Virus genome (UHGV): UHGV-0104572
DNA length: 11,433 nucleotides
Strand: one strand, 5' to 3'
DNA from: a virus
In this document: piece after piece, positions 50 through 11,433 of the stretch
How positions within the stretch are numbered: position 1 is the first letter of the stretch
Layout of the letters: every line of letters begins with the position of its first letter
Program-made: the position numbers and the translations under genes
The notes under the pieces: generated by a model
What the model was told of the DNA's origin: nothing
Seen by the model: only the letters and a program-made list of their open reading frames with translations
Database searches by the model: none

Positions 50-2068
50 TTACATTACTGTAATAATAAAATCCAAATCAACATTGGCACCTGTATTATT
101 AAATGTCTTAACCGTAATTGAATAGTCTGAATCCCTTGAGAAACTTGAATATCTACCAGATCCTCCAAACAATGTAATATTTGGAACGAGTGTTGAAACG
201 TTAAATGTAAAATCTATCTTATATGTTCCTGATGACAGTCTAGATACATTTGATATGTTCTGAGCTAATGAATAAGCACCTGTAGATGAAATATTTGCTC
301 TTGCAGATACCAACCCTTGGCTATTTCTCTGAACTTTTTCCAATCCAGAATATGGTGATTTCATTGAATTTTGGTTGCCAAAGTCTGTAAAAACAAGATG
401 GCTAACACCAAAAGATGAAGGGACGACAAATTGCACTTCTTTAAATGCAGATTCAGCAGAAGCACCAGTGTTAAGAAAACCATTTCCCATCATATTCAAA
501 TAACATTGAACACCAGAACTGAGATCTGATTGATTTGACTGTACTATAACTCTAGATGCGCTAACGGAATCTAAATTATAGTTAAATATTGAATTATTTA
601 TGTTAATAATTTGATTTAAGTTTCTGTTTATGTAAAAACTCACATCAGAACCAGTATTTGATTCGAAATAGCAATTATCAATTGTTGCTGCGACACGACC
701 TGCACCACCAATCAACGCAAACTGTACGCACGAATTAAATGCAATTGGGGTCCCGTTGGAATATGATTTCCCTCCATTTGCTTCAAACGTACAAGTGTCA
801 ATTTTCCAAGCGTGTGCGTGTTGGTTTTCGATACAAAATTCAGCATTGTACTGAAAATCACAGCGTGAAAGTCTTATTGAGTTTGGTCCTGACACTTCAC
901 CAAGTCTTCCTTGTATTGCTGTTTTGTTATAAGTAAATCTACAATTGTTAAACTCAAGATATAATGAATCTTTCAGTTTACACCCAATCTCAAAGCCATC
1001 TATCAGAACATTCCTCATTGAAAGCCTGATGCATTTGTTTATATTTAATCCAAATCCTGACCAGTCAGATCTATTGGCACTTGAATCTACAGATCTGATA
1101 GTGAGGTTTTCTATGGGGAATGATGAAAATACTGAAAGAGAGCCATCAAGATAAATCCCGAAATTATTCTGCGAAGTTTCTGAAGCTAGTATATTTACTA
1201 TTGATAACTTTTCGTCAACACCTCTTATATAAGCTACTTTTCCACCTTCTCTCTGGTGTATTGGTATTGATACTGGTGATTTTAAATTTATAATATTGCC
1301 TGGTAAAACGACCCCAAGCCCAAGAACTCCGGCGGCTGAAATGGCCTTCCTTAGATTTGGTGATAAGTCCAAGTTATCATCAGGATTTCCATGCATACCA
1401 TACATTTCACCTGTGATTTCTTTGATGTCTCTTCTAACCCAACAACCGTTTGATGATGGATGTTCATCTCCAACTCCGTTTACATAGTCTGATACATATG
1501 CATCTCCAATATATGGAACTGATGGTGATATTATACACCCTCCGTCATGCTTCGACCTTATTATGCTGTCATTAAACTCAAAAATACCACCACCACCACT
1601 TCCATCTCGATACCATGACTTTAGTAAAACCTTATCTCCATTATTAGATTCCATTCCATAAAAATCAGATACAGCACCCAACTCACCAACTAAATTAAAA
1701 CCACCTTTACTAGATAATTCCTCTCTTAATTGATCAGGGTCATACTTCAGCACATTCGGAAAATAGAACTGCTTAGCACCATATGCATCATAAACAGCCA
1801 TAGAATGGCCTTGCACGGTAACGAATTTGGCAATCTGTCCGTTATATACCGGATATCCAGCAGCGTTAATGATGATTGGTTGCGAAACAGGAACGTGAGA
1901 TCCGTCTTCGTTCTCCACATAAACCTGAATCTGGTTTTCAGGATTTACCGGGTCAGTGTCAATTTTACCGATATAAATTTTGCCATTGGCTACAGCTTTA
2001 AAAGAACGAGCCATAGTGAAGAGTTGCGAAGGCATGCTCACTACAACATTAGCTGTAATGTCTGTCAT
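50..2068 (-). CDS. Tailspike protein: P22/HK620-type N-terminal head-binding domain, divergent C-terminal receptor-binding domain
   Basis: 672-aa ORF. The first ~115 aa ([11 protein letters not shown]...[11 protein letters not shown]...NVLKYDPDQ) match the conserved P22 gp9 / HK620 tailspike head-binding domain as I recall it. The rest is G/N/S-rich with NxS/T repeats, typical of a beta-helix, but does not match the P22 or HK620 receptor domains I remember. GGAG lies 8 nt upstream of the ATG at 2068. Confidence 0.85.
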
Positions 2069-2126
2069 TTAATTTGCTCCAGATACAAGGAATCGCCGCA
2101 GCATGGCTACGGTGAATTTTGGGCAT

Positions 2127-2150
2127 AAAAAAACCCAGCCGAAGCTGGGT
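2127..2150 (-). terminator. Rho-independent terminator between ant and tailspike
   Basis: Plus strand has an A-run (2127-2133) followed by cccagc-cgaa-gctggg (2134-2149). On the minus-strand RNA this is a GC-rich hairpin followed by a 7-U run, 19 nt after the ant stop. Confidence 0.6.
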
Positions 2151-2168
2151 CGTTGCGTTGGTTATCTG

Positions 2169-3092
2169 TCAGTAGTTATGTACTGAAGGAGGTAATTCTT
2201 TATTCTTAAGTCTCATCCATGCGGAAAGATTCGTTGGTCCGTCTGGCTCATTAATATCAACATCTCGTGTGTGGTTTATTAAAACGTCTCTCGCCATTCC
2301 GATAACATACGAGAACTTATGACCGTAGTCGTAGCATCTGCCGGAATAGTTCGATTGAATTTGTTTTAGCGCCGGATACAGTTCGCGGAATAATGCCTGC
2401 GAACGGTTGGCATAATCCCATAACCATACAAGGCTGTTTGCTTCTTTTGCAGAAAGCTCGTTGGTTTTCTTCTCTTGTTTGCCAATGAACTCACCTTCAA
2501 GTGGAACTCGAGCTGCAAGTGATAGTGCTTCGGTAAACTGCTCCTCACTGATTTCTTTGTACGAACATCCAAAATGGGATTTTAGTGACGACCACATGGT
2601 GATCATCGCCTTAGCCTGTTTTTCTTTTGGCAGAGACTGACCGCGACTCATGACGAGTTGTTTAATGGCTTCCTGCTGTTCAGTGGTGATTTTACCCGGC
2701 AACGCTTTTTTAGCTTTGCGTGGGTTAACTACATGGCCTTTAGTCCAGTACTCGTATAGCACATCGTCACACTCTTCTTGATACTGGATTACATTGTCGC
2801 GGATTTCAGGGCGGACTTTGTTAGGGCTGATGGTTTGCAACCAGCCATTCAGTTTACGTAAAGCAAGGCAAATCATGGTCTGCACACCGCCAACTGAAGG
2901 TATTGCGATTTCCACAATTCCTTTAGCAAATCTTTGTTTTAACTTTGTAAACTGTGAAGCCCAATCCATACCCATTCCCTCAACGATAGGTTTCATTGGG
3001 GTGTACGGCTCACCGTTGTGATTGACAACATAAAGCTCTGCGCCGTGGAATGGTACATTGATAGTAGATACTGCTGTTGCTATACTTTTCAT
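2169..3092 (-). CDS. ant: Antirepressor Ant (P22 immI-type)
   Basis: 307-aa ORF directly downstream of arc on the same strand, the same order as P22 arc-ant-gene 9. The N-terminus (SIA..A..T..VPF.G.E...) resembles what I recall of P22 Ant and AntA-type antirepressor domains. AGGAA lies 8 nt before the ATG. Confidence 0.7.
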
Positions 3093-3161
3093 GTCGTTAA
3101 TTCCTATGCGTGGTTTTACGATATCGAAGCCCTGACTGTTCCCGCAGTTGGGGCTTCAACT

Positions 3162-3323
3162 TTACGCGCCAATGCGTCCTTCCTTCTTAAAACTTTCCAT
3201 TACTCTCTGATAAATCTCAGAGTTAACAGACCGACCATTCTCTTCCGCCACCTTGCGTACCAAATCCAATACTTCTTTAGGCCACCGCAAATTGAACTGC
3301 GGCATTTTGCTCATTCCTTTCAT
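3162..3323 (-). CDS. arc: Arc repressor (ribbon-helix-helix)
   Basis: Translation from the internal Met gives MKGMSKMPQFNLRWPKEVLDLVRKVAEENGRSVNSEIYQRVMESFKKEGRIGA, 53 aa, essentially identical to P22 Arc with one K/R difference by my recall. The longer 74-aa ORF in the track is an upstream extension running through the operator region. Confidence 0.9.
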   Translation of the reverse strand: MKGMSKMPQFNLRWPKEVLDLVRKVAEENGRSVNSEIYQRVMESFKKEGRIGA

Positions 3324-3339
3324 ATTCACCTCACAATAT

Positions 3340-3356
3340 GGGTCCACGGTGGACCT
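3340..3356. promoter_or_regulatory. Omnt operator (Mnt binding site)
   Basis: Palindrome gGGTCCACGGTGGACCt, matching the 17-bp P22 mnt operator AGGTCCACGGTGGACCT except at the first base. It sits at the predicted Pant start site. Confidence 0.8.
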
Positions 3357-3390
3357 GTTGAGAATGTAGTAGAGTGCTTCTATCATGTCA
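3357..3390. promoter_or_regulatory. Divergent Pant / Pmnt promoter region
   Basis: Minus strand (Pant): -35 TTGACA (plus 3385-3390), 17-bp spacer, -10 TACATT (plus 3362-3367), start site inside Omnt. Plus strand (Pmnt candidate): -35 TTGAGA (3357-3362) and -10 TATCAT (3381-3386), 18-bp spacer. Pmnt placement is less certain. Confidence 0.65.
3366..3386. promoter_or_regulatory. Oarc operator (Arc binding site)
   Basis: Reverse complement reads ATGATAGAAGCACTCTACTAc, matching the P22 arc operator ATGATAGAAGCACTCTACTAT with one end mismatch. It lies between the -35 and -10 of Pant. Confidence 0.75.
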
Positions 3391-3413
3391 ATACACTAAC
3401 TTGGAGTGATGGC

Positions 3414-3668
3414 ATGGCTAGAGATGATCCGCACTTTAACTTCCGCATGCCTTTGGAAGTAAGAGAAAAATTAAAATACAGAGCAGAGTCAAATGGTAGA
3501 TCAATGAACTCAGAATTGTTGCAAATCGTCCAAGATGCTCTATCGAGACCATCTCCTGTAAAAGGTTATCGCAATGAAGCTGAACGATTAGCCGAGATGC
3601 AGGCTGAACAGTTCAAGTCTGTGGTATTTGAGACACTTAAAAACATGTATGGCAAGGATGCAAAATGA
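3414..3668 (+). CDS. mnt: Mnt repressor (maintenance of lysogeny; represses Pant)
   Basis: MARDDPHFNFRMPLEVREKLKYRAESNGRSMNSELLQIVQDALS..., 84 aa, closely matches P22 Mnt as recalled. GGAG lies 7 nt upstream of the ATG. The 216-aa ORF in the track is an unsupported N-terminal extension. Confidence 0.9.
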   Translation: MARDDPHFNFRMPLEVREKLKYRAESNGRSMNSELLQIVQDALSRPSPVKGYRNEAERLAEMQAEQFKSVVFETLKNMYGKDAK

Positions 3669-4246
3669 TCGATTACAACCCAGCAAAAAAAGAAATCATC
3701 GCAGCTAAAAAGTGCCTAGAGCAGATGAAATCATCTACAAACCATGATGATTTTGAAATGCACTGGCGAGAATGTCTTGGGCATATAGAAAAGTCTTTCA
3801 GTAAGTTGCTCTGTGCAACAAAGCCGGTTAGTGGAAAATTTAGCAGCCACTTCAACCAAAAGTTCATGCTTAGAAAAACAGACAAAACACTTGCTTACCT
3901 TCACCAAGCAAGAAATGCTGATCATCATTCCACTATGGAAATCTCAAAACTTGAACCTCCTTATACTACTCTTGGGGCATTTCCGGGAGCAAGAAGCCAT
4001 TATATTAAAGAGTTAATCATTGATTCAACAGGGAAAATAGCAAAATACGAAGGCGACCCTATGATAGTTGAGTTTCATCCAGCAACAACTATGCCTATAA
4101 CCGTAAGAAACCAAGGCAAAGATTATCCACCTCCAACAGAACATCTTGGCGAAAAGCTTGTTGATATACATCCATCTGTTCTTGCCTATCTCGGTATACA
4201 ATTTTATGAAAAATGGATAGATGAGTCGTGTGCAACGTTTAGATAG
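3665..4246 (+). CDS. Hypothetical protein (193 aa), translationally coupled to mnt
   Basis: The ATG overlaps the mnt stop (ATGA). It is a long clean ORF with no transmembrane segment and no motif I recognise. It occupies the mnt-to-sieA interval of a P22-like immI region. Confidence 0.6.
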   Translation: MIDYNPAKKEIIAAKKCLEQMKSSTNHDDFEMHWRECLGHIEKSFSKLLCATKPVSGKFSSHFNQKFMLRKTDKTLAYLHQARNADHHSTMEISKLEPPYTTLGAFPGARSHYIKELIIDSTGKIAKYEGDPMIVEFHPATTMPITVRNQGKDYPPPTEHLGEKLVDIHPSVLAYLGIQFYEKWIDESCATFR

Positions 4247-4463
4247 TTATTTTTGATAATTTCAAGTATTTCCTCTTGACTTTGATTTACCCAAACGTGA
4301 TCACACTCATGAAACCAGATTATGCTTCCTGTTTCGCCTTGTGCAATATAGGTGATCATGTTTTCATTAACAATTATTACTGAGTTATCATGTGCGCAAT
4401 TTAGTTTTATCAATTCGCATATCCTATCGTGACAAAGTAACTAGAAAAACTAAAGAGGTTGGT

Positions 4464-4958
4464 GTGTCTGATTCTATGAGTTACGCTGTGCTAGTTGCCG
4501 CAACTCTATTTATGGGGATAGGGTTGCAGATTGCGTGGTTCTTTTTTTCTAGTTTTATTAAACGCAAAAGAATTGAATCAAGGATATCTGAGATTTCTAT
4601 TGCTATAGGGAAAAATGCTGAAAATCCAGAGAATGAGGCCTGCGCACTGAATTACCTTAAAGAAAAGTTTTCCCCTGAAAAATTTGAAAATAGAATTACT
4701 GATGCTCTTGGATTGGTAATATCAGTAATTCATATGCCACTAAGTTTGCTGATAACAGTGTGGTACTTCGCCATGATCGCCGGAAGAATATTTGGTTTCA
4801 TGAATATAGAGCCTGTAGTTCTTTGGGTTCCAATGATACTGCAACTGTTGTTAAGCGTTGCTATCTTTATTTTTTCTGTTTTTATAAAAATTGTCTTTGG
4901 AAGATACCCCGGAGAAGCTAAGGGATTTAATAAAGAATTCATAAAAACTATAAAATAA
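4464..4958 (+). CDS. Inner-membrane protein, SieA-like superinfection exclusion candidate (by position)
   Basis: Four hydrophobic helices ([21 protein letters not shown]; [21 protein letters not shown]; two more near the C-terminus). Start is either GTG 4464 (GAGG 5 nt upstream) or ATG 4476. Synteny mnt > orf > membrane protein, convergent with the gp16-like gene, matches the P22 sieA position. I cannot recall the SieA sequence to confirm. Confidence 0.55.
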
Positions 4959-4980: not shown

Positions 4981-6198
4981 CTACTGCCGGGTCGCTTCGT
5001 TAGCTAAGAGCGGGCGCACGGCAGTAGCAGCCTGATTTAGCGCTCTTTCATAAGCTGGCGTTCCAGCTTTAGTGTTTGCCAGACGTAAGAGCGCATTCCT
5101 TGCTGCTTTGGACTCATACAAACGCATCATTGCACCAAAACCAGCCTCAAGCCCCATTGATACTCCAAGAGTCGCAGTTGCGCCAATCGTCCTTATCCTG
5201 TTGGCTTGTGATTGCCCCGTCTGAGTTACTACATTTGCGGTGTCTGACCTTGCTGTTTGCTGTAGAACTTCATGAAGAGCATCGAGCTCTTTCATGTGCT
5301 TTCCAGAAAAAATAGTGTTGTAAATTTCACCGCCTGACTGAGATTTAAGCTTATTAACTTCAGTGATGAACTTGGCTGGAGAGTCACCGGCCTTTTCCGC
5401 TATTTTGCTGACGTAAGCTGCACGCATAGCATCTTTCCCTTTATCATCCAATGCGCTCCAGATTCGTTTCACGTCAGATGGTTTTCTGCTTAATACAACG
5501 GTATTTATAAGTTCAGGACTGGCTTCACTGCTTGCCTTGTTGAGCTTGTTAGCAATGTTTTTATTAAGCACCTTATTATAAACGTTTGCATAATCTGAAT
5601 TTGCTTTAAGGTATTTTGCTGCGTCTGATGCACCGAGGTTTTTAGCAACTGCGTTACGAAGGTCTTTTGACATTGCATTCTCTACCATATTGGTAGCTGC
5701 TTTTGCCTGGTTGGGGAAGACCATAGCATCTCCCTGAACATTAGATCTAAATGCTGTTCTGTGCTGACGCAAGAGATCAAACGTAACATCCAAATCAGTT
5801 GCAGGGTTTGCTAATTCTTCGCGTAGGTTACGCAAGGATGTAAGCAGGCTTTGATTGGCAGACGTCCCAAGCCGTTCCTGTCTTGCGATCGCTGTATTCA
5901 GAGCATTCATAGTGTTTGTGGTATCAACTGCGGCATTCCCCATTTTATTGGTGACGTCATTGATAACAGCGCCAGCGGCATCCTTCCGTCCCCTTAACGT
6001 GGTGGTCAGAGATTTCACCACATCATCCGGGTTGTACTCACCAAAACGGTCAAAATAATTACTTACCAACTTACTACGCGTTGCATATTGCTCCGCTCGC
6101 TTTGAGCCTGTCCCGAGCAAAGCCCCCTCGGCATTCGGGATGGCTGCATTTTGCGGTAAGCACGAACTCAGCCAGAACGACAAACAAAAGGCTATCAA
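4981..6198 (-). pseudogene. DNA ejection protein gp16-like, N-terminally truncated remnant
   Basis: 405-aa Ala/Asn/Lys-rich ORF on the same strand as the tailspike, immediately distal to the sieA-like gene, which is the position of gene 16 in P22. The first ~20 codons are antisense to the Q fragment, so the homologous part probably starts near 6130. Identification is by synteny and composition only. Confidence 0.4.
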
Positions 6199-6670: not shown

Positions 6671-6967
6671 TCAGAATTGCATATCAATTTGCTTAAAATC
6701 CTCGGTGGCGGCCGGGGATTTTTTCTTTGTGATTCCATCCAATGCATACTTAAAAGCCCTGCTAATCGGACTGATGTCTGATGCCATTCCGAAAGCACAC
6801 AAGACCGAAGCAATAAACCTCCAGTCCGTTCTGCTTATCTTCGATTCATGACAGCCAATCATCTTTGCCAGACCGCGCTGGGTAAGCGTTGACAGGTTGA
6901 TGAGTAAATCAGTTTCAGCGCGATCAATTTCTCGCTGTGTTGGCTTGCTATAACTTGCTTGTGTCAT
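6671..6967 (-). CDS. cII: CII-like transcriptional activator
   Basis: 98 aa. The helix-turn-helix segment LAKMIGCHESKISR parallels lambda CII AEAVGVDKSQISR, and the C-terminus KKKSPAATEDFKQIDMQF parallels KKRPAATERSEQIQMEF. It sits downstream of cro on the same strand. Confidence 0.8.
   Translation of the reverse strand: MTQASYSKPTQREIDRAETDLLINLSTLTQRGLAKMIGCHESKISRTDWRFIASVLCAFGMASDISPISRAFKYALDGITKKKSPAATEDFKQIDMQF
6945..6958 (+). promoter_or_regulatory. CII-binding direct repeat TTGC-N6-TTGC (PRE -35 region)
   Basis: TTGCtataacTTGC overlaps the 5' end of cII and points toward cro and cI on the plus strand, as PRE does in lambda. Confidence 0.55.
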
Positions 6968-7051
6968 TTGTTAATTTTCCAATAGTGAATAGTTAGTTGA
7001 AAGGTATGCGTGGAAACGCATATGGCCTTAGTTGGTCAGATATCTTGGGGC

Positions 7052-7097
7052 TCGCTTTGTCAGCGACGTAGGACGAATGTCCATTGTGAAAAGAGCG
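7052..7097 (-). promoter_or_regulatory. nutR: boxA-like CGCTCTTTT plus boxB hairpin with GACAA loop
   Basis: Minus strand has CGCTCTTTT (plus 7089-7097; consensus boxA is CGCTCTTTA) and UCGCU-GACAA-AGCGA (plus 7052-7066), between cro and cII. The loop is the P22-type GACAA rather than the lambda GAAAA. Confidence 0.6.
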
Positions 7098-7104
7098 GTG
7101 TTAC

Positions 7105-7305
7105 TTATGCAGTTGTTTTTTTGTTACTTGGGAAGGGCTTTATTTCTTCCGCATAAACGCTTCCATCAGCGTTTATAGTTAAAAAAATCTTTCGGCCTGC
7201 ATGAATGGCCTTGTTAATCGCGCTTTGATATACGCCGAGATCTTTAGCCGTCTTGGTTTGCCCAAAGCGTATTGCATAATCTTTCAGGGTTATGCGTTGT
7301 TCCAT
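7105..7305 (-). CDS. cro: Cro repressor
   Basis: [66 protein letters not shown], 66 aa, is lambda Cro with about two conservative substitutions. TAAGGAGG precedes the start. Confidence 0.95.
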
Positions 7306-7329
7306 ACAACCTCCTTAGTACAGGCAACC

Positions 7330-7399
7330 ATTATCACCGCTAGAGGTAAAATAGTCAACACGCACGGTGTTAGAAGTTTATCCCTTGCGGTGATAGATT
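7330..7399. promoter_or_regulatory. OR1-OR2-OR3 operators with divergent PR and PRM promoters
   Basis: OR1 7332-7348 is TACCTCTaGCGGTGATA on the minus strand, one G>A change from lambda. OR2 7356-7372 and OR3 7379-7395 match lambda exactly. PR on the minus strand: -10 GATAAT (plus 7330-7335), -35 TTGACT (plus 7353-7358). PRM on the plus strand: -10 TAGATT (7394-7399); the cI ATG is at the expected leaderless start. Confidence 0.9.
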
Positions 7400-7402
7400 T
7401 AA

Positions 7403-8119
<717 letters not shown>

Positions 8120-8150: not shown

Positions 8151-8492
8151 ATGACACAATTTCAACTTGCATTAATCGCTAGAGAAGTTGATGGAGAAGT
8201 CATCCATCTTCGCACCAAAGACGGATACATCAATGCCACCGCGATGTGCAAGTCTGCGGGGAAGCTACTTGCTGACTATACACGACTAAAAACAACACAA
8301 GATTTTTTTGATGAATTATCACGCGATATGGGGATTCCCATATCGGAGTTAATTCAATCATTTAAAGGCGGAAGAGCAGAGAATCAAGGGACTTGGGTTC
8401 ATCCAGACATCGCAATTAATTTAGCTCAGTGGCTATCTCCAAAATTTGCAGTGCAAGTATCGAGATGGGTGCGTGAGTGGATGTCAGGTTAA
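8151..8492 (+). CDS. KilA-N domain protein in the rexAB slot
   Basis: 113 aa; AGGA lies 6 nt before the ATG. The segment GYINATAMCKSAGK...GTWVHPDIAINLAQWLSPKFAVQVSRWV matches my recollection of the KilA-N signature (GT[WY]VHP..A...A.W.SP.F...V). It starts 31 nt after the cI stop, where lambda carries rexA. Confidence 0.65.
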   Translation: MTQFQLALIAREVDGEVIHLRTKDGYINATAMCKSAGKLLADYTRLKTTQDFFDELSRDMGIPISELIQSFKGGRAENQGTWVHPDIAINLAQWLSPKFAVQVSRWVREWMSG

Positions 8493-8531
8493 AGAGCGCC
8501 TGCCGAACTCCCTATCCACCTTAAGCGGTAT

Positions 8532-8910
8532 ATGACAAACCGAGGCAGAGTTCCTCATACGCACTTTTCTATGCTTAATGAACTGACGTTTAACTTGGTT
8601 GCGCCACTTGAACAGGCCGGATATACGCTGCCAGAAAAAATGGTCCCTGATATTTCAGAGGGTAGGGTTTTCTCGCAATGGCTCCGTGACAACCGGGGGG
8701 TTGAGCCGAAGACATTCCCAACATATAACCATGAGTACCCAGATGGCCGGACATTCCCGGTACGTCTATACCCAAACGAATATTGCAGATTTCAAACAAT
8801 ACTTCAACGAAGTGTGGCTGCCTCAGTACGCTCCTAAATATTTTGCTGAACGAGACCAAAGGGCATTGACGTTGATTGAGAAAATCATGCTACCTGACCT
8901 TGATTCCTAA
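8532..8910 (+). pseudogene. Unknown ORF with a frame break (frame 0 for 8532-~8780, frame +1 onward to 8910)
   Basis: Two overlapping ORFs (8532-8837 and 8599-8910) each look protein-like only in complementary halves: ...RTFPVRLYPNEY in one, ADFKQYFNEVWLPQYAPKYFAERDQRALTLIEKIMLPDLDS in the other. The break is near 8778-8786, not at a homopolymer. The first half is in the same frame as the KilA-N ORF, separated by a single TAA and 13 open codons. Confidence 0.5.
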
Positions 8911-9242: not shown

Positions 9243-9370
9243 AATAACCAAAGTGAACTTTGGGGTGAATGCAGAAGCTAACCTTCTCGGCGGAGGCGCT
9301 TTGCAATGATTACGCTACCGGAGTTAGTCGCCCGGCTGTATTCACCGCCAAAGTTCACCAGGAGGTCTAT

Positions 9371-9538
9371 ATGACACGCAGAACTCAGTTCAAAGGCAAT
9401 TCACGTTCTCGTCGTCGTGAGCGTTTAAAGGCAAAGGCATTAGCTAACGGCGTACTGGCCCGCGAAGAAGCAATAAGTTCAGAAGTATTACACCGCCCTG
9501 CGCCATCATCAATGTTGCGGCGATCGGCATCACCTTAA
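9371..9538 (+). CDS. N-like antiterminator, C-terminally truncated (55 aa)
   Basis: AGGAGG lies 6 nt before the ATG at 9371. The arginine-rich motif GNSRSRRRERLKAKA resembles the P22 gp24 motif GNAKTRRHERRRKLAIE. Full N proteins are ~100 aa; the last ~15-30 codons here are recT-derived DNA read out of frame. Confidence 0.6.
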   Translation: MTRRTQFKGNSRSRRRERLKAKALANGVLAREEAISSEVLHRPAPSSMLRRSASP

Positions 9539-10236
9539 ACCCAGCCAGCAAACTTGCTTATCTAGTTCCGCGCGACGGCATGGTTTGCCTTGATATCAGT
9601 TATATGGGATTGCTCCATATTGCAATGGAGTCTGGTGTTATCTCATGGGGTCAGGCAAAACTTGTTCATGCTAACGATACCTATGAGTCAAACGGGCTTG
9701 ATAAAGCACCAACCCATAAATACAACGCCTTCGGTGATCGTGGTGATATCGTTGGCGTTTACTGCACAGTTAAGACGCCAGCAGGTGATTATCTAACGGA
9801 AGAGATGAGTCTGGCTGAAATTGAGGCTGTAAGGAAAACAAGCAAGGCGGCATTCAGCGATAAAGGACCATGGGTAAATCACTGGAATGAGATGGCGCGA
9901 AAGACGGTCGTAAAGCGTGCAAGCAAGTATTGGCCTAAGGCATCACGTCTTGATAGTGCTATTCACGTACTAAACGAAGAAGAAGGTGTATGGACTGAAC
10001 CAGTTATGCCGTACAAATCAGAGGAAGATATCCGCGAAGATGAACGGAAACGCCAGCAGGAAATAACGGATAAAGCACAACTTCTTTGTGATGAAATGGC
10101 TCAGGCAGAAAACATGGATGATTTGAAGCGATATTTTGCAGAAGCATATCGCCTGACATCTGGAATGAAATTGCAGCATAACGTACAAGCCATTTACATA
10201 GAATGCAAAGCGAAACTGGAGGTTGCCAGTGAGTAA
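9448..10236 (+). pseudogene. recT: RecT-family recombinase, 5'-truncated remnant
   Basis: The frame is open from 9448. CAIINVAAIGITLNPASKLAYLVPRDG aligns with E. coli RecT SAIVQCSQLGLEPGSALGHAYLLPFG, and KGPWVNHWNEMARKTVVKRASKYWPKA with NGPWVTHWEEMAKKTAIRRLFKYLPVS. The N-terminal part is absent and there is no start codon or RBS for the homologous region. Confidence 0.65.
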
Positions 10237-10711
10237 ACTATATGAAATAGCCAATGAATACGCAAAATTGATGGATTCAGATTTAGAGCCAGAGATGATT
10301 GCTGACACAATAGAAGGCATGGAAGGAGAATTTACCGATAAAATAGAGCAACTTCTTTCCGTCATTAAAAATGAATCTGGTTATGCTGAACGCCTCAAGG
10401 AAGAGGCAAAGTCACTGAATGAGCGAGCCGCAGTAATTCAAAATAAGATTGACAGCATCATATCATATATAGCGTCATCGCTTGAAATGGTAGGCAAGAA
10501 AAAGATTAGAGCAGGTATTCACCAGGTAACAATCCGCAAACCGTCAGAAATTGTAGAAATAATCGACTCAAGCGCCCTTCCTCCTGAATACGTTGAGTTT
10601 GAAACAACAATTAAAGCCGACAAACTGGCAATCAAACACCAACTAAAAGCAGGAATAAATATCCCCGGCGCTCAACTCAAAGTTGGGAAACCTTCACTTC
10701 TTATCAAATAA
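10229..10711 (+). CDS. Siphovirus Gp157-like coiled-coil protein
   Basis: GGAGG lies 7 nt before GTG 10229, overlapping the recT stop. The ~160-aa protein has a charged coiled-coil N-terminal half and a C-terminal ...PPEYVEF...KAGINIPGAQL segment, resembling the Gp157 family often found next to recT/erf. Family assignment is from memory. Confidence 0.5.
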   Translation: MSKLYEIANEYAKLMDSDLEPEMIADTIEGMEGEFTDKIEQLLSVIKNESGYAERLKEEAKSLNERAAVIQNKIDSIISYIASSLEMVGKKKIRAGIHQVTIRKPSEIVEIIDSSALPPEYVEFETTIKADKLAIKHQLKAGINIPGAQLKVGKPSLLIK

Positions 10712-10774
10712 CGGTATCGCCTATGAAAAAGACTCCATGGGAGAAATGGGAAGTCGATTTCTTGCGCGAAGTAG

Positions 10775-11383
10775 CGGCGACAAGGCCATATAACAACAAA
10801 CCCTGTCGCTGCCACTCGCGCAGCAAAATCAGAGGTAAGGAGATCAAGACTTACGGCTGACGAATACCTGAAAATTTATCAAGCAGCAGAATCATCACCA
10901 TGTTGGCTCAGACTTGCAATGGAACTGGCTGTTGTTACCGGGCAGCGAGTTGGTGATTTATGCGAAATGAAGTGGTCTGATATCGTAGATGGATATCTTT
11001 ATGTCGAGCAAAGCAAAACAGGCGTAAAAATTGCCATCCCAACAACATTGCATGTTGATGCTCTCGGGATATCAATGAAGGAAACACTTGATAAATGCAA
11101 AGAGATTCTTGGCGGAGAAACCATAATTGCATCTACTCGTCGTGAACCGCTTTCATCCGGCACAGTATCAAGGTATTTTATGCGCGCACGAAAAGCATCA
11201 GGTCTTTCCTTCGAAGGGGATCCGCCTACCTTTCACGAGTTGCGCAGTTTGTCTGCAAGACTCTATGAGAAGCAGATAAGCGATAAGTTTGCTCAACATC
11301 TTCTCGGGCATAAGTCGGACACCATGGCATCACAGTATCGTGATGACAGAGGCAGGGAGTGGGACAAAATTGAAATCAAATAA
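10775..11383 (+). pseudogene. int: Integrase (lambda Int-type) remnant, C-terminal catalytic domain only
   Basis: From ~10784 the frame reads GHITTNPVAATRAAKSEVRRSRLTADEYLKIYQAAESSPCWLRLAMELAVVTGQRVGDL...HLLGHKSDTMASQYRDDRGREWDKIEIK, about 98% identical to lambda Int from residue ~168 to the end, including the catalytic Tyr in SQYRDD. An in-frame TAG at 10772 and unrelated upstream sequence replace the arm-binding and core-binding domains. Confidence 0.9.
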
Positions 11384-11410
11384 TGATTTTATTTTGACTG
11401 ATAGTGACCT
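11380..11410 (+). other. att site P' arm: Int arm-type binding sites P'3, P'2, P'1
   Basis: ATAATGATTT, ATTTTGACTG and ATAGTGACCT are reverse complements of the lambda P' arm-type sites (consensus C/AAGTCACTAT), overlapping and just after the int stop. The core would lie beyond the window end. Confidence 0.75.
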
Positions 11411-11433
11411 GTTCGTTGCAACAAATTGATAAG

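Follow-up and report, generated by a model that had tools for sequence, protein, structure and literature searches.

The window, by which we mean the whole 11,433-nucleotide stretch of DNA analyzed here, represents an entire prophage remnant of 11.9 kb. Its setting was seen in L017, a scaffold from an ENA metagenome assembly (ERZ28598109) that is 100% identical to all 11,433 nucleotides of the window. There, ybhC lies on the int side of the remnant and ybhB-bioA on the other, a position that corresponds to the classical lambda attB locus between gal and bio.

Reading from the ybhB-bioA side, the element carries a P22-type tailspike gene (672 amino acids, with a head-binding domain; 50-2068, minus strand), ant (2169-3092, minus strand), arc (3162-3386, minus strand), mnt (3414-3668, plus strand), a gene for a 193-amino-acid protein with no assigned function (PHROG 23516; 3665-4246, plus strand), and sieA (4392-4958, plus strand). 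This attR-proximal end, from 50 to 4958, looks fully intact. The tailspike protein occurs in 175 blocks of the assembly collection, and its gene adjoined ybhB-bioA in all five loci that we examined. Next come a C-terminal fragment of gp16, the P22 DNA-transfer gene (4981-6198, minus strand), a fragment of a Q-type antiterminator gene (Pfam PF03589; 6140-6475, plus strand), cII (6671-6967, minus strand), cro (7105-7305, minus strand), and a lambda-type cI gene encoding 237 amino acids (7406-8119, plus strand). These are followed, all on the plus strand, by a BstA-like gene split into three open reading frames (ORFs) (8151-8910), N (9269-9538), a 5′-truncated recT (9580-10236), an intact Gp157-family gene (10223-10711), and the region of the int deletion junction (10723-11383). 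The window contains no replication, lysis, head, or packaging genes.

The immunity region (6671-8119) is nearly that of wild-type lambda, with DNA that is 96.3% identical and only four residues of cI and two of Cro that differ, while the cII gene is of a type other than lambda's. Judged from these sequences, the remnant may still give its host lambda immunity. More broadly, the retained cI/cro immunity region, sieA, and the P22-type immI genes may affect the phage sensitivity of strains that carry the element.

The int remnant and its upstream neighbors

We aligned the right-hand end of the window to lambda base by base. Homology to lambda int begins at window position 10782, which corresponds to lambda 28413 and to the second position of int codon 157, and G158 is the first Int-identical residue. 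From there the match runs free of gaps to the int stop codon (11381-11383) and onward via the P′ arm to position 11433, with 6 mismatches in 645 nucleotides between 10782 and the window end (99.1% identity). The original prediction had placed the start of homology near 10784, at about residue 168, and the identity at about 98%; the alignment corrects all three values. The window thus retains a startless 3′ remnant of a lambda-type int (codons 157 to 356 plus the stop codon; 10782-11383, plus strand), itself 99.1% identical to lambda 28413-27812.

A megablast search of 10200-11433 against phage records agreed with this limit, giving matches only from query position 583 (window position 10782) to the end. 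The matches were to the int genes of lambda (int/attP, J02459.1 27724-28882), 434, HK97, 2B8, and others, and identity over the 3′ 602 nucleotides of int and the P′ arm was 99.0 to 99.5%. The match statistics (a blastn E value of 0 and a tblastn E value of 2e-132 for Int residues 157 to 356) are far beyond chance. The closest sequence was the intact int allele of L021, a prophage of E. coli WCHEC040047 (NZ_CP043295.1 953107-968252), which differs from the window at 1 of 652 nucleotides, so no decay of the remnant is detectable since the deletion. Relative to lambda Int, the retained part carries the changes H164P, A245T, and I248V. All three are present in the intact L021 Int and are therefore allelic differences rather than products of decay.

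Translated in the int frame, the sequence across the junction reads K*RRQ-GHITTNPVAATRAAKSEV. The stop is the TAG codon of the original prediction (10772-10774, plus strand) and lies three codons 5′ of the junction. Between this TAG and the ATG at 10919, which encodes Met203, the int frame has no ATG, GTG, or TTG. The longest int-frame ORF therefore runs from Met203 to Lys356 (154 amino acids; 10919-11383, plus strand) and is probably not expressed. It matches Pfam PF00589 from profile position 28 of 172 onward, and the E value of the PF00589 match was 1.4e-34.

The N-terminal domain of lambda Int (residues 1 to 55) binds arm sites, and the core-binding (CB) plus catalytic domains (residues 75 to 356) bind and cleave core sites, with Tyr342 as the nucleophile (PMC4880445, PMC1807965). 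We compared the remnant with this scheme for a functional heterobivalent tyrosine integrase of the lambda type. At the DNA level, R212, K235, H308, R311, H333, and the nucleophile Y342 are all encoded in the int frame. The arm-binding domain (residues 1 to 55, Pfam Arm-DNA-bind_1) is missing, since homology starts at codon 157, and the core-binding domain (within residues 75 to 175) is encoded only from residue 158. Structural comparison gave the same limits. Lambda Int PDB chains align to the int-frame translation at residues 158 to 356, and the 1p7d chains, from a CB plus catalytic construct (residues 75 to 356), align only from chain position 85, equivalent to Int residue 158. The crystallized catalytic domain of 1AE9 comprises residues 177 to 355, and its chain aligns to the int-frame translation there. 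Because there is no start codon before Met203, however, the 154-amino-acid ORF lacks the first 26 residues (177 to 202) of this domain.

Searches for the missing parts gave chance matches only. The best tblastn match of Int residues 1 to 157 in the six frames of the window had an E value of 1.6, and the best matches in a search of all window frames for Int 1 to 157 and Xis had E values of 0.28 or worse. Both sequences were also absent from the six frames of the 22-kb L017 locus in a tblastn search. Compared with lambda int, then, the window lacks codons 1 to 156, the start codon, and xis, and nearly all of the core-binding domain is gone. The absence of the arm-binding and core-binding domains had been correctly predicted. 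The description of int as cut down to its catalytic domain holds in that roughly this half of the DNA is kept, but what is kept reads as a pseudogene, in which a TAG interrupts the frame and an ORF starts only at Met203.

We found no Shine-Dalgarno-like sequence before the ATG at 10919, and a promoter scan found no promoter-like site within 10467-11342. Across 10200-11433, promoters and terminators were predicted at the level expected from shuffled sequence. The natural lambda pI promoter, which we take to lie in xis, is deleted here. The int remnant is thus predicted to be silent. After inactivation of cI, read-through from pL would cover it, and a low level of the Met203 fragment is then possible.

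Upstream of the remnant lies the Gp157-family gene (10223-10711, plus strand), which encodes 162 amino acids and matches the full profile of Pfam PF05565 (E = 3.8e-36). Among the early-left (pL) operon genes preceding the deletion, it is the last that is undamaged, and it is annotated alike in the relatives L001, L002, and L021. The sequence that follows it, originally described as unrelated, turned out to be the 5′ end of a conserved phage gene for a 104-amino-acid protein found in the same three relatives. Twenty codons of this early-operon gene remain (10723-10783, plus strand), identical to L001 and L002 through 10783; the full gene occupies 9067-9381 in L021. The 104-amino-acid protein matches PHROG 11492 and part of PHROG 323, has no assigned function, and gave no Pfam match above the curated cutoff.

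A chimeric ORF of 45 codons spans the junction (10723-10860, plus strand). It consists of the 20 codons of the 104-amino-acid gene (MKKTPWEKWEVDFLREVAAT) followed by 25 codons of int DNA read out of frame, and it has no Pfam or PHROG match. The predicted ORF was thus real, with the given sequence and in a frame other than that of int, but it starts at 10723 rather than 10733. We also considered a fusion of this ORF to Int by read-through or frameshifting and rejected it: the frames differ, and there was neither support for a programmed shift nor a conservation signal.

The deletion junction and its parents

We located the junction by three-way alignments, using L001 and L021 on the left and lambda and L021 on the right. 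It lies within 10782-10788. The AA at 10782-10783 is common to both parent sequences and sits inside an imperfect 7-bp match, AA(T/G)GCCA. In L001 and L002 the Gp157-family gene is followed by the 104-amino-acid hypothetical gene. In a megablast search of complete E. coli genomes with the whole window as the query, prophages matched through 10788 and then diverged.

L021 supplied both parents in a single element. It occupies the same chromosomal site, with int adjoining ybhC, and its gene order is cII, cro, cI, N, kil, RecT, Gp157, the 104-amino-acid gene, about a dozen small genes (including DUF5405, DUF2737, DUF7446, Ea22-like, and DUF551), an excisionase gene, and a gene for a 356-amino-acid integrase. 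The window shares with it the order from cII-cro-cI to RecT-Gp157-104-amino-acid gene, at 96 to 98% identity, and aligns to L021 7845-9132 and 12995-13646. What the window lacks is exactly L021 9128-12996, a stretch of 3,869 bp that holds the dozen or so genes, xis, and the 5′ part of int. Unlike the window, L021 has these 3,869 bp, an intact recT, and an intact 345-amino-acid gene and retains replication genes.

The anatomy of the region, its two parent sequences, the junction between them and its recurrence in several assemblies, the absence of Int 1 to 157 and Xis, and the intact att cores are matters of direct observation; how the deletion arose, the silence of the int remnant, and its failure to excise are inferred. 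We are very confident that one deletion of about 3.9 kb, joined at a microhomology, left this scar in a decayed prophage at lambda attB that has lost autonomous excision. Because both parents share AA within the imperfect 7-bp match, the junction fits an illegitimate, microhomology-joined deletion; an exact microhomology of 2 bp is weak evidence for any particular mechanism.

The course of events suggested by this comparison is as follows. A lambdoid, P22-like prophage would have integrated at E. coli lambda attB, between ybhC and ybhB-bioA. One illegitimate deletion would then have joined codon 21 of the 104-amino-acid early-operon gene to int codon 157, so that roughly a dozen accessory genes and xis were lost, along with the int sequence for the arm-binding domain and almost the entire core-binding domain. 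Left behind would be a promoterless, startless 3′ int pseudogene beside an intact attL (B-O-P′). Deprived of Int and Xis, the prophage would have been fixed in place, or "grounded." Later decay would have truncated recT, split the BstA-like gene, and removed the replication, lysis, and head genes, leaving the 11.9-kb remnant.

An int pseudogene in a cryptic prophage is an already known kind of feature and a case of ordinary prophage decay. Loss of the recombinase gene is a known route to fixed or cryptic prophages (PMC6379469), and defective prophages with a disrupted integrase are amply documented (PMC2669165). As in the window, recombinase loss fixes the prophage in the grounded E. coli prophages (PMC6379469), and the O157 Sakai prophages Sp3, Sp11, and Sp12 are defective, with a disrupted int (PMC2669165). 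Deletions, IS insertions, and inversions follow in these grounded and defective prophages, and immunity or exclusion genes are often retained. The element studied here differs from them in lying at lambda attB and in that the disabling event is resolved to the base, with both parents in cis. It serves as a tidy illustration of prophage fixation traced at base resolution.

Attachment sites and excision

The P′ arm (11380-11433) is 100% identical to lambda 27815-27762, in agreement with the predicted retention of P′1 to P′3. The arm-type Int sites P′3, P′2, and P′1 lie within 11380-11411 (lambda 27815-27784), with P′3 overlapping the int stop codon; their exact limits we take from what is known of lambda attP. 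The remaining arm sequence on the core side (11412-11433; lambda 27783-27762) contains most of the H′ IHF site. In L017, the 15-bp core of attL, GCTTTTTTATACTAA, lies 24 to 38 nucleotides past the right end of the window (L017 598-612) and is followed by the left arm of attB and ybhC. The int end of the element is therefore a lambda attL (B-O-P′) that has P′1 to P′3, H′, the core, and the B arm, the last two being outside the window, in L017. The catalytic residues, P′ arm, core, and chromosomal attB (ybhC | ybhB) are all the same as those of lambda.

The core of attR, also perfect, lies 418 to 432 nucleotides past the left end of the window in L017, beside ybhB/bioA. A search for the att core had been proposed for the original prediction, and these two perfect cores answer it. 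The P arm of attR (L017 12290-12504) is 87% identical to that of lambda, with the P1 and P2 arm sites kept. Its differences from lambda cluster in lambda 27645-27712, which we take to be the location of the Xis, Fis, and IHF H2 sites. Despite the variant P arm at the attR of L017, the intact relative L021 encodes an Xis with only one residue changed from that of lambda.

The element is thus a defective prophage: attL and attR delimit it at a known attB, it has neither a functional int nor xis, and the genes for lytic growth (replication, lysis, head, and packaging) are lost. We looked for an intact int that could act from nearby, a possibility that had been raised against the original prediction, and found neither a full-length int nor xis within the element or 10 kb on either side of it. 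Given this gene content, it is very probable, taking the two statements jointly, that int here is a pseudogene rather than a gene for a shortened integrase protein and that the element is incapable of excising itself. The expectation that the element would be unable to excise is thereby upheld for autonomous excision, to the extent that the absence of int and xis predicts it. For annotation, the appropriate label is int pseudogene, within a cryptic prophage at lambda attB, rather than short integrase.

A remnant that is inert alone might nonetheless be mobilizable, if Int and Xis from a superinfecting or coresident phage were to excise it or recombine it in trans. Because both att cores are intact, a helper supplying lambda-type Int and Xis could excise the element in trans, and the identity of P′1 to P′3 to lambda and the preservation of P1 and P2 at attR also favor this. 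Helpers should be common, because we found lambda-type int DNA, and with it probably an occupied lambda attB, in 2,057 of 5,426 complete E. coli genomes (38%), at 80% or more of full length in 2,012. Set against this, the P arm is only 87% identical to that of lambda, and binding of a helper's Xis is uncertain because the differences fall where the Xis, Fis, and H2 sites lie. The site is moreover occupied, so that a helper of the same specificity would have to be a tandem lysogen or a transient infection. In favor of mobilization, defective O157 prophages can still be excised and interact with one another (PMC2669165). On balance, we give mobilization in trans a little less than an even chance.

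Other int truncations and the occurrence of the junction

We then looked at other truncated copies of int at this site, which are common. The exact 154-amino-acid ORF was present in 773 blocks of the assembly collection, always adjoining ybhC. In the ten loci examined, the upstream int breakpoints were independent and fell at codons 44, 110, 157, 170, 176, and 185. The other remnants among L006 to L015 share with the window the 154-amino-acid ORF adjoining ybhC, the P′ arm, and the core but differ from it in having independent breakpoints (codons 44, 110, 170, 176, and 185). Several of these truncated copies directly adjoin IS elements, rather than ending at a clean deletion, in IS-rich loci that also have genes resembling ipaH-type effectors (LRR_TTSS/NEL). 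L012 has lambda homology over the whole of int, at 91.6% identity with gaps, and its int is called as two ORFs. In L008, only about 5.4 kb of remnant is left from attR to attL.

A look-up by the exact 154-amino-acid sequence can return only truncations that lie upstream of Met203, and in the complete genomes the remaining int copies include 5′-truncated, 3′-truncated, and att-only remnants. We therefore gave no meaning to an apparent clustering of breakpoints near the CB/catalytic boundary, in view of this look-up bias and of the remnants that lack the 3′ end. Allowing for the bias, the spread of the breakpoints is what random decay predicts.

These data also bear on a possible co-option of the Met203-Lys356 fragment, which, if expressed, might for instance poison the tetramers of an incoming lambda-type Int or act on core sites. 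Co-option would explain why the 3′ end of int is kept beside attL in many genomes, the identical ORF recurring with at least six upstream breakpoints and with all six catalytic residues encoded. That recurrence, however, is subject to the ascertainment bias of the exact look-up, and complete genomes hold the opposite kind of remnant, in which the 5′ end is kept and the 3′ end lost (H155 and H157), as well as an att-only remnant (H160). The fragment has neither a Shine-Dalgarno sequence nor a promoter-like site and is devoid of residues 177 to 202 of the crystallized catalytic domain. The near-identity of the remnant to intact alleles (1 difference in 652 nucleotides from L021) is accounted for by the deletion being recent. 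We consider expression and co-option of the fragment highly improbable. We find it just as hard to credit that the fragment, or the int 3′ end together with the attL DNA, is under selection, either as a dominant-negative subunit that hinders incoming lambda-type phages from integrating or excising or as a protected landing pad for such phages; if it were, the recurrent independent truncations at attL would represent domestication and not random decay.

To return to the single deletion that we favor, its junction was searched for as a 27-mer. IMG/VR gave two exact matches, one in an isolate genome (L004) and one in a metagenome (L005), and exact-protein look-ups with the 154-amino-acid ORF and the tailspike gave three more carriers: L009 (NCBI GCA_900450495.1), L011 (ENA metagenome assembly ERZ27307284), and L017. 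The junction has thus been inherited across assemblies, and its flanks are continuous and colinear, extending more than 4 kb in one direction and into ybhC in the other. The 27-mer had no match in GTDB species-representative genomes or JGI metagenome contigs, and the junction was present in 0 of the 5,426 complete E. coli genomes. This scarcity in large collections implies that the carrier lineage is uncommon. A sequencing error or an assembly chimera concealing an intact int, a concern raised with the original prediction and one that the abrupt breakpoint and the absence from complete genomes might encourage, is practically excluded, because five independently made assemblies from NCBI, IMG/VR, and ENA carry the same junction with these same colinear flanks.

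We also rejected an engineered origin of the DE3 type. In DE3, int is interrupted at its BamHI site. In the window, this site (GGATCC near 11218) is intact and the breakpoint lies elsewhere.

The int/xis deletion was present in all family members whose int end could be examined, and some of the other deletions are member specific, a pattern consistent with loss of excision first and erosion afterward. L004, L009, and L011, which share the int junction, keep the 4.6 kb that the window has lost at 6129-6134. This second deletion measures 4,586 bp by comparison with L004, L011, and L016, has a 6-bp overlap at its junction, and joins the C-terminal gp16 fragment to the Q-type antiterminator fragment. 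The Q fragment, together with the neighboring DnaB-like gene in L011, lies on the strand opposite cro and cII, which implies an earlier inversion.

Elsewhere in the element, the 218-amino-acid ORF of recT matches only positions 60 to 186 of the Pfam RecT profile, and the gene in relatives encodes 303 amino acids. The truncated recT is joined to the N region near 9499-9501, an arrangement shared by all family members examined, and kil and the other genes found between N and recT in L001 and L021 are missing from the window. The BstA-like abortive-infection gene is located between cI and N, where lambda has rexAB. Its pieces comprise a 113-amino-acid ORF with a KilA-N domain and two ORFs that match PHROG 6287. 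The counterpart in L021, matched by position only, is a single 345-amino-acid gene (3148-4185), and the copy in the window is probably a frameshifted pseudogene.
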